This document shows, in pieces, positions 3,538-64,000 of a stretch of DNA of 64,000 nt. Positions within the stretch are counted from its first letter, which is position 1, and each line of letters begins with the position of its first letter. Location: the sequence record NC_105514.1; one strand, given 5' to 3'. The position numbers were made by a program, and so were the translations under genes. Below the pieces are notes generated by a model. It was not told the origin of the DNA, made no database searches, and saw only the letters and a list, made by a program, of their open reading frames with translations. Origin of the DNA: Escherichia phage JLBYU40.

Positions 3538-5868
3538 TTAAATAGTACAACCGCCTGATGCACAACCGGCTGCTTCTTCTCCTGCACCACCACCATTAGC
3601 GGTGTTGAAGTTTGCGTAGTAGAAAGTCTTCCACCCATACTTAACAGCAGTCATGAAATCACGAACTACTACTGGACCAGGAATGATTTCATTCTCAAAC
3701 TTGGTGTAGTCATAGTACATATTCGTACTGATAGACTGACTGAAGAATTTCTGCATAGTTGCTACCCATTTGATCCACTCGATACGATCTACATCATAAG
3801 CCAGTTTATAGCTCATTAACGTTTCCCAATCGGTTGCACCCGGAGCAATTGCAATTACTTTATTCACTGCACTACCCTTGATAGATACAATCTTACGAGG
3901 CGGTTCAATAGAGTTAGTAACACCTAACAGAACAGAAGAACTTTCTCCCGGCATCTGAGCAGTCAGAACAGAGTTACGCATACCATATTTCAGAATATCT
4001 GCACGTAGAGACTCCCAATCCATTTCTAGACCTACGGATACCAGTTCATCAACAGTTTTCTTGTACGTGTCGATTACCAGAATTCCTTTAGATGGTTTAG
4101 TACGATCAAACCACTCACATGCACCCTGTTCTTTAGCTAGGCGTACAGAGGCTTTATGTAGGAAGTAGGACAGTTTTTCAGCCTCACGGTGAATCCAGTT
4201 ACGGGCTTCAATACCTTCGTAAGCCAGACCTTCTGCTGCCATTGCACCTGCTGCGTTCATTAGGCCAATACCAACATTACGACGTTTCTTAGCCGTATAT
4301 TCCATAGTTGGGAACGGATAATCCTGAATTTCGATAATTGTATCAACGAATTTCAGAAGGATGTAGCAAGTTTTTTCCCACTCAGCTAGAGATTCCATGC
4401 GTCCAAGTACAACACCACCTAAGTTACACAGAGATACTTCACCAATATCCTCCGGCTTCATTTGATCAAGCTGCTCTTTTGTCTTATACAGCTCTGTAAT
4501 GTGATGGAATGGGCGTGTAGGCTGAGTAATCTCAACACAAAGGTTTGTCATACGGATCGGATCAAGGAAATTACCGTGACGATTAGATTCCCCGATGTGA
4601 TGAGCATACATACGTCCTGTTTCCATTCGGATACGTAGCCAAGTATCTAGGATTTCTTTTGCAGAGACTTTAGGAGCTGCAGGAACTGTTTTTCCTTCGT
4701 GGTCGATCTTTGTAAGAGATGCCACACGTTTCTCCGCTGCCACGTAGATTTCTTCAAATTTAGCCTCGTCATCACTATAAAACGCTTCATGAACTTCTGG
4801 AGCATAGAAGTATGACATTAGCGTAATATCTTCATTTTTCAGATAACGTTTTAACAAAAGATTGTTGAAGCTCAGAGAATAATCCATCTTATCGATTTTA
4901 TTCTCATCTGTAGCACGTTGTTGCTTAACCTGCATTAATTGAATGATTTCAGGGTCGAAGTATGGATAAGACACTGTAGCAGAACCACCACGAGTTTGCT
5001 GAGTATTGGCCTTTACTGAGCGGTCAATGTGTCGATAATATGGCAGTTTTCCGGAATGCGGGAATGCCCCATTTCGCACCGGATCAGCAATTGATCGGCT
5101 TTCAAGATGATACCCGATTCCCGCTCTGGCTGCGACCATTTTGAAGACGATGTGCTCGGCGGTGTCGATTGAATCCAACGTGTCAGTGGAATCCACGAGG
5201 CAGCAACTAGCAAATCCACGGTCACTAGAGCGCAGACCAACCAGTGGCGGCGTAGGAACGTTGATTTTGTGGAGCGACATTGCGTTGTAGAGGTCGATTG
5301 CATCTAGAATTGTCCAGTTAGGTTGAGATAACATCGCCATTGCCATACCCATGTAGGCAAACTGCGGGGTTTCGTAAATTTCACCAGTGGCTATGTTACG
5401 ACGGGAATACTTATCAAAGAACTGCTTCAGCCCACCACTAGTAAAAAGACGGTCACGATCATGGTCGATAACCTGATTCAGAGCTTCAAATTGCTCATCG
5501 GTAATCCATGCACTCATGTCTTCCCATGCACCTACGCTAACCATGTGGTCATGGAAGAAGCGTAGAGAAGGTGGTTCGAAAGAGTCATAAAGGCGTTTAC
5601 GCATTTGCGCAAGACGTAATTCCTTTGCTGGCACATCGTATGCTGGGTTATCTTTGATAAGACTTTCAGCAGCTTTAATTAATGCGTCCATCAGAGTGTC
5701 GGAATCTACAACCCCTTTAGGTAGAGTTTTTTGAGCAGCCATAGTAATGGCTGACCAGCTTACATCAACTGTTTTGCAACCATACTCTGCCCAACCATTG
5801 AGTTTTTCAGGAGCAAAGTCTTCTACAGTACCGTCACGTTTAATTACTTTTTCAATGCGATGGCTCAT
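3538..5868 (-). CDS. nrdA: Ribonucleotide reductase class Ia alpha subunit
   Basis: ATP-cone start VIKRDG, active-site NLCVEI motif. Start placed at ATG 5868 (MSHRIEK) with AAGGAAA RBS rather than the ORF-track start 5973. Confidence 0.9.
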   Translation of the reverse strand: MSHRIEKVIKRDGTVEDFAPEKLNGWAEYGCKTVDVSWSAITMAAQKTLPKGVVDSDTLMDALIKAAESLIKDNPAYDVPAKELRLAQMRKRLYDSFEPPSLRFFHDHMVSVGAWEDMSAWITDEQFEALNQVIDHDRDRLFTSGGLKQFFDKYSRRNIATGEIYETPQFAYMGMAMAMLSQPNWTILDAIDLYNAMSLHKINVPTPPLVGLRSSDRGFASCCLVDSTDTLDSIDTAEHIVFKMVAARAGIGYHLESRSIADPVRNGAFPHSGKLPYYRHIDRSVKANTQQTRGGSATVSYPYFDPEIIQLMQVKQQRATDENKIDKMDYSLSFNNLLLKRYLKNEDITLMSYFYAPEVHEAFYSDDEAKFEEIYVAAEKRVASLTKIDHEGKTVPAAPKVSAKEILDTWLRIRMETGRMYAHHIGESNRHGNFLDPIRMTNLCVEITQPTRPFHHITELYKTKEQLDQMKPEDIGEVSLCNLGGVVLGRMESLAEWEKTCYILLKFVDTIIEIQDYPFPTMEYTAKKRRNVGIGLMNAAGAMAAEGLAYEGIEARNWIHREAEKLSYFLHKASVRLAKEQGACEWFDRTKPSKGILVIDTYKKTVDELVSVGLEMDWESLRADILKYGMRNSVLTAQMPGESSSVLLGVTNSIEPPRKIVSIKGSAVNKVIAIAPGATDWETLMSYKLAYDVDRIEWIKWVATMQKFFSQSISTNMYYDYTKFENEIIPGPVVVRDFMTAVKYGWKTFYYANFNTANGGGAGEEAAGCASGGCTI

Positions 5869-6010
5869 TTGGCTTTCCTTTTTATAGTTATCAGGATTTA
5901 AGGAATATTCTACTTTATTATCGGTCATTAGGCAAATAAAATTTTCTGATAGAAAAGGCCCGAGTATTTTCATACCCAGGCCCTGTATATTACCAGTCTA
6001 GCTTTTTAGC

Positions 6011-31893: not shown

Positions 31894-33712
31894 GACACTA
31901 AAATTTAGTAACGTTATGTCTTACGGTAAGGACATCGTAATTCATTTCGATAAGAATCCAGTTACTCAAATAATTGGTGGCAATGGGCTAGGGAAATCCA
32001 CCATCGCTACGGTTATCGAGGAATTGTTTTATAACAAGAACTCACGTGGTATTAAGAAGGATGCTCTGTTCTCTTGGGCTTCTCCGAAAAAAGAGTATGA
32101 TATGCACGCTTACTTCTCGAAAGATGAAGATGAGTACGAATTGCATAAAGTAGTTAAGTCAACTGCTAAAGTAACTCTTATTAAGAATGGAGAAGATATT
32201 AGTGGACACACGGCAACTCAAACATACAAGATGATTGAAGAGATTATGGGTGGTGACTTCCAAACATTCACCAAACTGATTTATCAATCGGTGGGTTCCA
32301 ATCTAGATTTTCTAAAAGCAACGGATGCAACACGTAAGGCTTTTCTTGTCAATTTGTTCAATCAAGAACAGTATAAAGAAATGTCAGAAACTATTAAGGC
32401 TGACCGTAAAGAAATAGCAAATACCTTAAATAATTTGCAGGGCCAAATGGCTGTAGTTACGAAAATCCTTAATGGAAAAAATAATCTAGGAACTTTGCAG
32501 GAACCTGTAGAAGTACCGGAGTTTGATGAAGAGCCATTAGCACAAGAACTTACTGAATCGAAAATTAAGGCGGCATTAGCCAAGTCTCAAGAGGCTAATA
32601 TTACTAAGTTGCGTAATTTGGACAAAGCTGTACAAGTTGCCGAACAATCTTTCGAGCCTTTCAAAAATTTGCCTGCGCCCACTGACCAAAATGAAGAGAT
32701 CTCAAGTGTTACGCGTGACCTAACGATTGTGACCTCACGTGCGGGCGAAGTTAAGAAACGTTATCAGAAGTTCAAGCAAGAGGCTTCAAATACTGAATGT
32801 CCTACTTGTGGTACTCATCTGGATACAACTGCTGCTCAAAAAGCAATGGATATGGCTAGAACAGAATATGACCCTCTGTTCAAAGAGAAACAATCTCTTG
32901 AAGCTAAGTTAGAACAGTTGAAGAAAGAACAACTTGAGTACACTACATATATTAGAGCAAAGGATGCTTTGGATAAAGCAGTAGCAGCTAGAGACGAGTT
33001 CAAAAATTCAATGAGTGATGCTTCTTTTGAAGAACTCAATGTGCAAAACCTACAGGTGCAAATCCGACAATTAGAACAGGAAATCGCTAATGGCCGTTCT
33101 AAGGTTGCAATTGCCAAAGAGCATAATGCAAATGTCGAATTAGCCAATGCAAAATATAAAGCGAAACTAGAACAGATTGAGAAAGCTGAGGCAGAAATGT
33201 CTGAGATTACTTCCAAACTGGATGAGGTATCAGAAGCTGTTGCTGATCTCGATATTCTGATCGCTGCATTAAAGAATCTAGTAGGATATAAACTAGAGCA
33301 TAGTGTGAAAGTATTTGAAGAGCTTATCAATAAATATCTTTCCATTATGACTGGAGGTAAATTCGCACTTGGATTTGAACTTGATGAAACAAAATTACAA
33401 GTAGTAATCTTCAATGATGGAAACCGTACCAGTATGGAGAACTGCTCTACTGGTCAGCAAAGTCGAATTAATCTAGCAACCCTATTAGCTATTCGAATGC
33501 TATTAACATCTATTAGTAAAGTTAATATTAATCTTCTGTTCCTTGACGAAGTAATTAGCTTTATTGATACGAAAGGACTTGATACCCTAGTTGAACTATT
33601 AAATGAGGAAGAAAGTCTAAATTCTATCATTGTTTCTCATGGGCATACGCATCCATTAGCTCATAAGATTACTGTCAAAAAAGATGCAGAAGGATTTTCC
33701 TACTTAGAATAA
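31874..33712 (+). CDS. SbcC/Rad50-like ATPase
   Basis: Walker A GGNGLGKST, zinc hook CPTCG within a coiled coil, Walker B LLFLDEV; start ATG 31874. Confidence 0.85.
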   Translation: MSKITIKTLKFSNVMSYGKDIVIHFDKNPVTQIIGGNGLGKSTIATVIEELFYNKNSRGIKKDALFSWASPKKEYDMHAYFSKDEDEYELHKVVKSTAKVTLIKNGEDISGHTATQTYKMIEEIMGGDFQTFTKLIYQSVGSNLDFLKATDATRKAFLVNLFNQEQYKEMSETIKADRKEIANTLNNLQGQMAVVTKILNGKNNLGTLQEPVEVPEFDEEPLAQELTESKIKAALAKSQEANITKLRNLDKAVQVAEQSFEPFKNLPAPTDQNEEISSVTRDLTIVTSRAGEVKKRYQKFKQEASNTECPTCGTHLDTTAAQKAMDMARTEYDPLFKEKQSLEAKLEQLKKEQLEYTTYIRAKDALDKAVAARDEFKNSMSDASFEELNVQNLQVQIRQLEQEIANGRSKVAIAKEHNANVELANAKYKAKLEQIEKAEAEMSEITSKLDEVSEAVADLDILIAALKNLVGYKLEHSVKVFEELINKYLSIMTGGKFALGFELDETKLQVVIFNDGNRTSMENCSTGQQSRINLATLLAIRMLLTSISKVNINLLFLDEVISFIDTKGLDTLVELLNEEESLNSIIVSHGHTHPLAHKITVKKDAEGFSYLE

Positions 33713-60420: not shown

Positions 60421-60902
60421 TACTTCTTACCTCCAGTAGCTAGGGAAGTAATTAAGTCCATGTAGTTTTGATCCCCAGCTCCAGCAATAATGTTATTCTG
60501 GATATTAGTCTGATTAGCGGGAGCACGGACAGCAGCTTTAGCTTTCTCTAACTCTACCATCATCTTCATTTCTTCCATCTTCATTTTGTGTGCCTTCCAG
60601 AGAATATCCATAATATCTTGGTCAGAACCCATGCCAGTTTCTTCTAGCTCTTCTAGCTTACGCTTAATAACTTCATCTAGAACACCAAATAAACGATCTC
60701 TATTACGGAATCCACTCTCCATAAAAATATCATTTAAGTAGTTTTTAACTTCGCTACGATTCATAATATCTCGGAAAGCAATTTCAGACATTCCAAGACT
60801 ACGTGCTGCGGCAGGGACATCACTACCGCATTGCAGATACGCTTCAATCACATCCATCCCTTCAGGGGACATAAGATCTGGTACTAATACATCATTTGCC
60901 AT
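60420..60902 (-). CDS. Terminase small subunit (putative)
   Basis: 160 aa with HTH-like [16 protein letters not shown] and coiled-coil C-terminus; immediately upstream of the large subunit. Confidence 0.55.
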
Positions 60903-63198: not shown

Positions 63199-63327
63199 AT
63201 GTCAAACAAAAGAAAGAGCAGACGCGGAGAGGTGTATGATAGCTGGATTAATAGTTTTGGGTTCGGAACTATCCTATTCTTTATTTTCGTAGGTTTTTGG
63301 TTAGCAGCTATGGCGGGGTGGATTTAA
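63199..63327 (+). CDS. Small single-pass membrane protein (42 aa)
   Basis: Basic N-terminus then TM helix FGFGTILFFIFVGFWLAAMAGWI; ATG 63199 after AGGAG. Confidence 0.35.
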   Translation: MSNKRKSRRGEVYDSWINSFGFGTILFFIFVGFWLAAMAGWI

Positions 63328-63434
63328 TGGAATGGGTAATTATTGCATTACTAGGGATTGTGATTATCGGGCAATGTATTTTAGATAATCACTTAGCTAG
63401 AATTGAAACTTTATTACTGGAGAAGCGTAAATGA
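63327..63434 (+). CDS. Small single-pass membrane protein (35 aa; not in the ORF track)
   Basis: MEWVIIALLGIVIIGQCILDNHLARIETLLLEKRK; TAATG coupling to the previous ORF. Confidence 0.3.
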   Translation: MEWVIIALLGIVIIGQCILDNHLARIETLLLEKRK

Positions 63435-63625
63435 TGGAAGTAGTAGCTACATTAATAATAATACTAGTCTGGGCAACTTTCATTGTTTCTTATAACGCGT
63501 ATGTTCGCCTAAAAACTCTAGAAGCCCGGGTAAAACAACAACAATTTGCCATAGAAAAACTAGTAGAATTGCAACGTTGTGATAGTACCCGTATTCTGCA
63601 AATTGAGAGGGAATTAGATGTTTAG
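63431..63625 (+). CDS. Small membrane protein with coiled-coil tail (64 aa)
   Basis: TM helix VVATLIIILVWATFIV then heptad-like region; start overlaps the previous stop (TGATG). Confidence 0.4.
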   Translation: MMEVVATLIIILVWATFIVSYNAYVRLKTLEARVKQQQFAIEKLVELQRCDSTRILQIERELDV

Positions 63626-63863
63626 TATTATAGTTGCTTTTATTATCGGGGTAACCGCGGGAGTTTTCGGGACAACTGCGGCAATTAACAAGCATCGGGA
63701 ATATATCGCGGGGGTGACGCGGGAGATTGCGGAAAGGGAGCGGAAGTTTGACGAGAAACGTGCGGAGTTTGAGCGGGAGTGGTCGGATGGATCTCGGGCG
63801 TCGCGGAAGAGATTCCGTGAGTTCAGGCCAGAACACAGGTTTGATGACCCTTCTATGCGCTAA
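63618..63863 (+). CDS. Small membrane protein with Arg/Glu-rich tail (81 aa); 3' two-thirds GC-rich
   Basis: TM helix FSIIVAFIIGVTAGVFGTTAAI; codon usage switches to CGG/GCG/ACG-rich after about 63650. Confidence 0.35.
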   Translation: MFSIIVAFIIGVTAGVFGTTAAINKHREYIAGVTREIAERERKFDEKRAEFEREWSDGSRASRKRFREFRPEHRFDDPSMR

Positions 63864-64000
63864 TTTGACTTTTGCCAATTTCTTTGGATTACGTACGCGT
63901 GGGTGTGTCCAGTGGCCTCTCAGATGAGAATGAGTCTCATTACCGCCCGGTACTTAGCAGGCTAATAGTCACGGCATGTTATCATTACACACCGTGACTA

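Follow-up and report, generated by a model that had tools for sequence, protein, structure and literature searches.

A GC-rich island next to the probable start of the right terminal repeat of a T5-type phage coincides with the coding core of a T5.162 homologue

What is the GC-rich, repeat-laden sequence that appears at the right edge of the stretch of Escherichia phage JLBYU40 DNA analysed here (the window; 64,000 nucleotides of record NC_105514.1, one strand)? A reading made from the letters without database searches, which we call the sequence-only reading, had described an abrupt rise in GC content after about 63650, reiterated motifs, palindromes and unusual codons, and had suggested a module boundary, for instance a terminal repeat that starts here, an array of protein-binding sites, or DNA gained by horizontal transfer. 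We asked which of these, if any, accounts for the interval. Our analysis indicates, with a probability that we put at about 85%, that the interval consists of a gene homologous to T5.162, the boundary of a terminal repeat at 63906 ± 1, and a leader that bears two palindromes. Both genes of the T5.162 type and long terminal repeats are known from T5-like phages and have been catalogued there.

When the final 1 kb and the final 20 kb of the window were compared with known sequences, both aligned over their full length, at 93-95% nucleotide identity, with T5-like phages, among them the Tequintaviruses chee24, VSe12, VEc33 and OSYSP. Over 1-20 kb, the gene order is common to the window, chee24, VSe12 and VEc33. 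In the relatives, the order toward the flagged interval runs from the terminase to the receptor-binding protein pb5 and then, on the opposite strand, to an llp/Cor-like lipoprotein and several tiny ORFs, after which comes the right terminal repeat, whose first gene, dmp, is on the minus strand. The ORFs of the window match this T5-type order. Because both the gene order and the level of identity are those of the T5-like relatives, homology places the flagged interval where the unique region of a T5-type (Tequintavirus) genome gives way to the right terminal repeat.

The GC-rich sequence proper occupies 63650..63830 on the plus strand, where it forms codons 11-71 of an ORF of 81 amino acids. 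Its GC content is 58%, against a window mean of 0.392 (sd 0.042-0.046), and sliding-window analysis gave it the highest GC in the 64 kb: the top 150-nt windows (63691/63711, GC 0.587) and the top 200-nt window (63651, GC 0.57) are the maxima of the entire stretch. The rise in GC that had been noticed after about 63650 was thus borne out, but it is a local island of about 180 nt and not a lasting shift; the final 137 nt of the window (63864-64000) have a GC of 0.467, and the chee24 sequence past the junction has a GC of 0.37-0.42. The island is also the window maximum for CpG, with 21-22 CpG per 180 nt and an observed/expected ratio of 1.63, compared with 0.72 in the window as a whole, which is CpG-depleted.

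The reiteration of GCGGGAG and GCGGAAG at roughly helical spacing was confirmed as well. Eight copies of GCGG[GA][AG] start at 63657, 63708, 63719, 63729, 63740, 63762, 63773 and 63803, so that the successive spacings are 51, 11, 10, 11, 22, 11 and 30 nt, with runs of 10-11 nt. The tetramer GCGG occurs nine times in 200 nt when 0.29 occurrences would be expected (Poisson P about 3e-11), and the next-densest plus-strand cluster of GCGG in the window has three. For GCGGRAG, the window holds 15 copies compared with 5.3 ± 2.5 in shuffled sequences, and five of the 15 fall inside a 150-nt part of the island.

Codon usage in the ORF was found to be as far removed from that of the rest of the phage as had been claimed. 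CGG makes up 6 of its 13 arginine codons (P about 1e-8), whereas 51 long ORFs use it for 1.3% of theirs, and GCG makes up 6 of its 8 alanine codons, compared with 8% in the long ORFs (P about 7e-6). The GC content at third positions (GC3) is 0.57 in the ORF and 0.67 in its core, compared with 0.30 ± 0.05 (maximum 0.40) in the long ORFs. From the amino-acid composition alone a GC content of 0.459 ± 0.02 is predicted, and 0.585 was observed; the composition of the protein thus supplies roughly half of the excess, and codon choice the remainder. The strongly preferred codons, CGG, GCG, TCG and GAG, contain CpG or end in G, and the third positions (G in 25 of 42, C in 3 of 42) show a bias toward G, not toward G and C together. 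The anomaly had been described as overlapping the 3' part of an ORF; it does overlap the ORF, but most of the ORF (63618..63863) is affected and not its 3' part alone. Codons that are rare and rich in CpG and third-position G, in a CpG-depleted phage, are a modest curiosity unless they serve at the DNA level, a reading that is taken up below.

The identity of the ORF was clear from its homologues. The 81-amino acid product matches the profile of phrog_6447, annotated as 'membrane protein', over residues 1-81 of 81 (E = 2e-46), and its counterpart in T5 is T5.162 (YP_006990, 'membrane protein, single transmembrane domain'), which has the same length of 81 residues, shares 86% identity and likewise has no further ORF between it and the right terminal repeat. 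The two differ by a few substitutions and in the C-terminal tail, PEHRFDDPSMR against PKYGVDDHSMR. The neighbours are also those of T5, namely the gene of an llp/Cor-like lipoprotein and three small ORFs (T5.159-161), and the T5 copy of the gene has a GC-rich, CGG- and GCG-rich core as well. The gene is of the same length and at the same position in T5, BF23, MM-1, chee24 and K38, in all of which it is the last of the rightward llp-T5.159-162 cluster, and it was present in every retrieved T5-like locus that spans the position. A word-indexed search of 5.8 billion proteins returned 81 database homologues with 72-95% identity, all of them from T5-like phages or their metagenomic relatives. The GC-rich block is, by this homology, the coding sequence of the conserved T5.162/phrog_6447 gene and no module boundary; an ordinary coding gene with conserved homologues, the very case that the sequence-only reading had named as speaking against its proposal, is what the block contains.

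More than 30 relatives from the genera Tequintavirus and Epseptimavirus have kept the gene, and it bears the signature of coding sequence in them. Among 31 relatives, nucleotide diversity at codon positions 1, 2 and 3 is 0.069, 0.062 and 0.18, respectively, which makes third positions 2.6-2.9 times as variable as the other two, and the length variants are in frame. The dN/dS ratio against the Epseptimavirus Stitch is 0.36. The excess variation at third positions and the in-frame insertions and deletions argue that the gene is translated and that purifying selection acts on it. The start codon and the stop codon of the upstream small ORF overlap (ATGTTTAG at 63618-63625), suggesting translational coupling in the rightward small-ORF cluster, of which the T5.162 homologue would be translated as the final gene. 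Two other ORFs that overlap the region, an antisense ORF of 132 amino acids (63480..63878) and an ORF in the +1 frame (63727..63927), found no support as genes, as the positions that vary most are non-synonymous in their frames; they are open in 28 and 30 of the 31 relatives, respectively, as expected in T-poor sequence. In the papers searched, neither an account of what T5.162 does nor an experimental function for its family was found, and Pfam gave sub-threshold matches only (LapA_dom, E = 0.001, below the cut-off).

We next consider why the motifs recur every 10-11 nt. The first 23 residues of the protein are uncharged and hydrophobic, they are followed by NKHR, and the remainder is rich in arginine, glutamate and alanine. 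AlphaFold2, run with 19 aligned homologues, predicted one continuous helix over residues 2-69 (mean pLDDT 78), and the T5 record annotates a single transmembrane (TM) domain for T5.162. We infer an N-terminal TM helix that would continue into a long Arg/Glu/Ala-rich helix, a topology under which the island codes for the membrane-proximal end of the TM helix and for the charged helix. The motifs were found in two codon registers, as alanine followed by a G-initial codon (GCG-Gnn) and as a G-ending codon followed by arginine (nnG-CGG), and GCGG[GA]AG accordingly encodes either Ala-Glu/Gly (GCG-Gnn) or x-Arg-Glu/Lys (nnG-CGG-rAG) codon pairs. The residues that bear the motifs are A31, R35, A38, R42, A49, R53 and R63; with positions 45, 56 and 60 added, they follow one another at a 3-4-3-4 spacing, and on an alpha-helix all of them point to the same face, to within ±40 degrees. 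Since the motif residues form a stripe along one helix face at 3.5-residue spacing, the periodicity comes from the protein and not from phasing on the DNA; on the predicted structure, the 10-11-nt spacing of the motifs is a 3.5-residue (10.5-nt) stripe of alanine and arginine. A DNA motif with a period of about 10.5 nt can thus reflect the 3.5-residue repeat of a helix rather than a protein-binding array, and a sharp GC island can be one small gene.

If the island is not a module boundary, where is the terminal repeat? The stop codon of the T5.162 homologue is followed by a 42-nt spacer (63864..63905), delimited with alignment A1 and the junction sequences, that ends in ...GGTG, and the next 95 nt (63906..64000) are, by homology to T5, the first 95 nt of the right-hand copy of a long direct terminal repeat, starting with TGTCCAGTGGCC. 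In alignment A1, nucleotide 1 of T5 (TGTCCACTGCC) lies opposite position 63906 of the window. The annotated start of the right repeat in T5 (NC_005859), BF23, MM-1 and Stitch is within 1 nt of the homologous position; in T5, BF23 and MM-1 the repeat starts 42-43 nt past the stop codon of the T5.162 homologue, and Stitch has an intervening extra ORF. For BF23, the termini had been mapped by PhageTerm analysis of read ends (PMC10644984). Besides the window, 23 loci share the boundary motif, and by homology the right terminal repeat probably starts at 63906 (±1), with 42 nt separating it from the stop codon.

The boundary therefore lies inside the interval, as the suggestion of a terminal-repeat start had it, but it follows the GC-rich block at a distance of 42 nt and does not account for it. 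The locus resembles the junctions of other long T5-like repeats (10,219 bp in T5, NC_005859; 9,743 bp in BF23) in having ...GGTG followed across the boundary by TGTCCA(G/C)TG(G/C)C, 42 nt after the T5.162 homologue, and then a non-coding hairpin leader and, in the relatives, the minus-strand dmp gene. It differs in that the window holds only the first 95 nt of the repeat, which is known here by homology. These 95 nt are a non-coding leader, which in the relatives precedes the stop codon of dmp, and the leader is of the window/chee24 type (95 nt to a dmp-proximal conserved block) and not of the T5 type (108 nt). In chee24 and Kenya-K38 the repeats are annotated 95 and 20 nt further right, respectively, and the chee24 record begins 95 nt inside the repeat as defined in T5; we take these rightward offsets to be imprecise annotation and not a biological difference. 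For annotation, the comparison fixes a real gene at 63618..63863 and a probable right-repeat start at 63906, from which several deposited relatives are 20-95 nt off. In phages with terminal repeats, the terminase cuts concatemers at the start of the repeat, which makes the left genome end. With the long direct terminal repeat beginning at 63906 ± 1, this is where the terminase would be expected to cut.

A second discontinuity was found within the gene itself. In relatives, a recombination or insertion breakpoint falls after codon 66/67, which corresponds to 63815..63820 of the window; BLAST matches break at query position 219, and the C-terminal tail that follows codon 66/67 is one of several alternatives, EFRPEHRFDDPSMR, MSESGDKPVDRRSS, KIDGKS or AKVSDEE. 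Some relatives have an HNH endonuclease gene or an extra ORF at the breakpoint, HNH-type ORFs being present in loci L025 (SSP1; 2206-2703) and L020; in the window, the tail is of the T5 type and nothing is inserted. On comparison of these sequences the locus is clearly mosaic. Against Stitch, synonymous divergence (pS) is 0.23 in the core of the gene and 0.55-0.70 in the flanking genes. We read the low pS of the core as the trace of a recent segment exchange rather than of nucleotide constraint, because the locus is mosaic in several respects: the upstream ORF is 42% identical in protein, the breakpoint lies at codon 66/67, and there are alternative tails and endonuclease insertions. Constraint is a possible reading too, for the comparison of four-fold sites given below, in which close relatives dominate, may have had too little power to reveal it.

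Why, then, does the core of the gene use such odd codons? The explanation that we favour, and hold tentatively, is a foreign origin of the gene core (63693-63818) followed by spread through recombination at an insertion hotspot. The core would have been acquired fairly recently from a compositionally different source, for example another phage, its CpG- and G3-rich codons would not yet have been ameliorated, and recombination, or co-conversion driven by homing endonucleases, at this locus would have carried it through the Tequintaviruses and Epseptimaviruses. The extreme composition and codon usage are consistent with such a history, and the divergence from Stitch, low in the core with its flanks at 0.55-0.70 and an upstream ORF of 42% protein identity, is the pattern expected of a recent exchange; the breakpoint at codon 66/67, with its alternative tails and with two different HNH endonuclease genes inserted in relatives, also points this way. 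The sole relative outside the group, a protein that we call P0083, is encoded in a phage contig of 65% GC. It was detected with HMMER at E = 7.6e-5 and matches phrog_9090 at E = 1e-13 and phrog_6447 at E = 2.4e-7, which hints that the T5.162 family may be shared with GC-rich phages.

The case for acquisition is weakened by the absence of a donor. The search of host genomes that the idea of horizontally acquired DNA had called for covered 5,426 complete E. coli genomes and came back empty (blastn, E <= 0.01), and no donor was found among plasmids or among 1.84 billion representative proteins, an exhaustive HMMER scan of which added P0083 as one marginal outsider and no closer relative. The homology of P0083 is itself marginal and lies in a low-complexity charged helix, and its neighbours belong to no informative families. 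Moreover, the T5-type gene is G-specific at third positions, whereas P0083 uses C3 and G3 about equally, and for this reason a simple high-GC donor fits poorly. We consider the acquisition possible, though distinctly on the doubtful side. It is compatible with the T5.162 gene as the explanation of the island, and it would explain the codon bias.

Selection for the rare codons themselves seems improbable to us. Rare codons might throttle or time the translation of a small membrane protein that is potentially toxic, and 10 of the 13 arginine codons are indeed CGG, AGG or AGA, with CGG conserved at five positions. The first 50 kb of chee24 encode a single tRNA-Arg, whose anticodon, TCT, reads AGA, and the window is without tRNA genes, so that CGG would need a host tRNA. 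But the bias extends to GCG, TCG and GAG, which are not known to be notably rare in enterobacteria, and the four-fold sites of the gene are without significant constraint.

The remaining question about the motifs is whether they are kept for the sake of the DNA. The GCGG[GA]AG array could be a cis-acting site within the coding sequence, a phased binding array at which the small terminase subunit (encoded on the minus strand at 60423-60902) or another DNA-binding protein guides the adjacent cut. The CpG- and G-rich array might in that case be a recognition or phasing element of the packaging and terminus machinery of T5, or else a site recognised by the homing endonucleases whose genes are inserted at codon 66/67, and the odd codons would have been kept by a function at the DNA level. 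We regard this as very unlikely, even though several features of the array are suggestive. It is the densest cluster of GCGG and CpG in the window, and the first 50 kb of chee24 contain none as dense; the repeat boundary is 100-250 nt away; and its copies succeed each other at about one helical turn (11, 10, 11, 22 and 11 nt), with the same heptamer arising from two codon registers. The CGG and GCG codons are largely retained across two genera, with the low pS against Stitch, and in Epseptimaviruses the substitution D45A (GAC to GCG) makes an extra GCGGAG that fills the 22-nt gap.

The helix face nevertheless accounts fully for the periodicity, and the comparative evidence goes against a conserved site on the DNA. 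Diversity at four-fold sites is 0.175 in the core and 0.207 in its neighbours (Mann-Whitney p = 0.35; the core was compared with four neighbouring small genes and the TM segment, in a set dominated by close relatives). Copies of the motif are replaced synonymously in relatives, for example by GAA-AGA-GAA in Kenya-K38, and are lost through in-frame deletions in the isolated phages Kenya-K44, SelmaRatti and SP-3. Gene and repeat are 42 nt apart in T5, BF23 and the window, and about 250 or 520-580 nt in relatives with an intervening extra ORF or HNH endonuclease gene. In the two Providencia and Vibrio T5-like phages sampled, which are more distant, no such array adjoins dmp. With synonymous sites varying normally, a variable distance to the terminus, motif copies lost and the array absent from the Providencia and Vibrio phages, the protein-binding array proposed by the sequence-only reading found no support.

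Short repeat arrays flank the terminal repeat of T7, and pac sites can lie within genes. The island resembles these systems in being a cluster of short reiterated motifs that adjoins a terminal-repeat boundary; it differs in that its motifs are codon pairs under purifying selection, at a variable distance from the boundary and with copies lost in relatives. Our literature search found no description of a T5 packaging site or of a cis-acting site for terminus generation in T5-like phages. A T5 nick site was looked for in the flagged region and not found: the published consensus for the major nicks of T5, R/GCGCRGG (PMC3517423), has no match in it and one match in the window, at 32672-32679.

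Simpler sources of the island were rejected: an insert derived from host or plasmid has no match in the 5,426 E. coli genomes (blastn) or in 72,556 plasmids (tblastn), tRNA genes cannot account for the GC peaks in a window that encodes none, and a tandem-repeat origin is contradicted by TRF, which finds nothing, the block having only degenerate direct repeats of 20-27 nt with 67-75% identity, some of them out of frame. No special RNA structure was detected in the GC block (RNA fold z = +0.27).

The palindromes that had been noticed, ATGAGtCTCAT and GTCACGG...CCGTGAC, proved to be present at 63924-63940 and 63966-64000, respectively, and both lie in the non-coding leader, within the first 95 nt of the repeat. 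Palindrome 1 (63924..63940) reads ATGAGA-atgag-TCTCAT and contains ATGAGTCTCAT at 63930-63940; it is conserved in the window/chee24-type leader allele and absent from the T5-type allele. Palindrome 2 (63966..64000), which ends at the last base of the window, can form a hairpin, TAGTCACGG...CCGTGACTA, with an outer stem of 9 bp, an inner TGT/ACA stem and a 7-nt loop. The DNA fold of 63864-64000 has a z-score of -2.85 and is better than 199 of 200 shuffles.

The site of palindrome 2 was found to be occupied by two hairpin alleles that are unrelated in sequence, that of the window and that of T5 and BF23 (GTTTCACCCTGCAA...TTGCAGGGTGAAAC). Inside each allele there are compensatory double changes (loci L017, L008, L019/L021 and L012), and in MM-1 the loop is inverted. 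The two alleles and the compensatory changes argue that palindrome 2 is a hairpin under structural selection. Most likely it would serve as a terminator, or as an insulator that separates the small ORFs transcribed rightward from the pre-early dmp operon transcribed leftward. As in rho-independent terminators, a GC-containing stem is kept by compensatory changes and lies between convergent units in the context of the right repeat or of a concatemer. In relatives, a T-rich tract follows the hairpin on the plus strand (TATTTCAACTTTAATT; TTTTATTTTT in Stitch). The hairpin differs from such terminators in its long, 17-nt interior with an inner 3-bp stem and in its T tract, strong in Stitch but weak in the majority of relatives; in chee24, four of the first eight bases after the stem are T. 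A scan with a terminator consensus did not call the hairpin in the window or in chee24, and canonical terminator and promoter consensus scans gave nothing beyond chance. In the left-end copy of the repeat, the hairpin would lie about 60 nt from the physical genome end, where a role at the DNA end is possible, and from the homology of the boundary the left genome end is expected to begin with TGTCCAGTGG.

In phages related to JLBYU40, we observed two different HNH-type endonuclease ORFs between the homologue of T5.162 (the 81-aa ORF at window 63618..63863, plus strand) and the start of the right long terminal repeat. These ORFs (L025 2206-2703 and L020 about 2240-2716), one of 165 aa and the other of up to 184 aa, occupy the counterpart of window ~63815-63905. 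The same interval was found in other relatives to hold an alternative insert, an extra ORF of ~70 aa, and alternative C-terminal tails of T5.162 also occur, the switch falling after codon 66/67. The interval looks like a hotspot for the insertion of mobile endonuclease genes; in the window, it carries no insertion.

We also analyzed the proteins of the T5.162 family. Two database homologues, P0080 and P0073, switch part-way to the +1 frame (…RKGSGSLTRNVRSLSGSGRMDLGRRGRD…), probably through a frameshift or an assembly error within the G-rich stretch. Because the sequence is poor in T, the +1 frame stays uninterrupted in 30 of the 31 relatives. Outside the T5-like phages, the family had a single relative, P0083, a 131-aa protein (phrog_9090, E = 1e-13) encoded at L037 6001-6396 on a metagenomic phage contig of 65% GC. 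Its gene closes a series of large ORFs on that contig, none with a recorded Pfam hit. Upstream of the T5.162 homologue, window 63199-63625 holds three further tiny ORFs (42, 35 and 64 aa). Their N-termini are hydrophobic, and starts and stops abut or overlap from one ORF to the next. Each matches a separate PHROG family without an assigned function (phrog_8596, phrog_6369 and phrog_5851).

At the equivalent position in the T5-like Klebsiella phage phi1_146058 (L043), between pb5 and dmp, there are ORFs of 74 aa and 153 aa, the latter with a hydrophobic N-terminal segment followed by a charged region. Homology between these two ORFs and those of the window was not detectable. The pb5-dmp interval of this phage, a 978-nt stretch, contains 9 GCGG and reaches a local GC peak of 0.58.

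We also compared the annotated repeat starts and the genome ends. Relative to the repeat start common to T5, BF23, MM-1 and Stitch (window 63906), the terminal repeat is annotated as beginning 95 nt rightward in the chee24 group (L001 4000) and 20 nt rightward in Kenya-K38 (L002 3926), and the first base of the chee24 record falls within the T5-defined repeat. The two physical ends of T5 (L004/L005, L040) and of BF23 (L034/L041/L042) are similar in inverted orientation: the left ends read TGTCCACTG in T5 and TGCTCACTG in BF23, and the right ends, as reverse complements, GAGCCACAG and GATCCACAA. This similarity could reflect a common cleavage motif. At its left end, the window carries TGTCCAGTG.

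MM-1 (L033) has a T5-type leader, whose hairpin occupies about nt 65-101 of the repeat. Its stem is the same as that of T5, whereas the loop is inverted (AATTAAAATGGTT vs. AACCATTTTAATT). The published consensus of the major T5 nick sites, R/GCGCRGG, occurs only once in the window, at 32672-32679 on the minus strand (GGCGCAGG).

The window's GC content has its second-highest peak at 5051-5300 (0.555 over 200 nt), inside an 811-aa ORF on the minus strand (3538..5973). From its sequence and its synteny with chee24, this ORF appears to encode the large subunit of ribonucleotide reductase.
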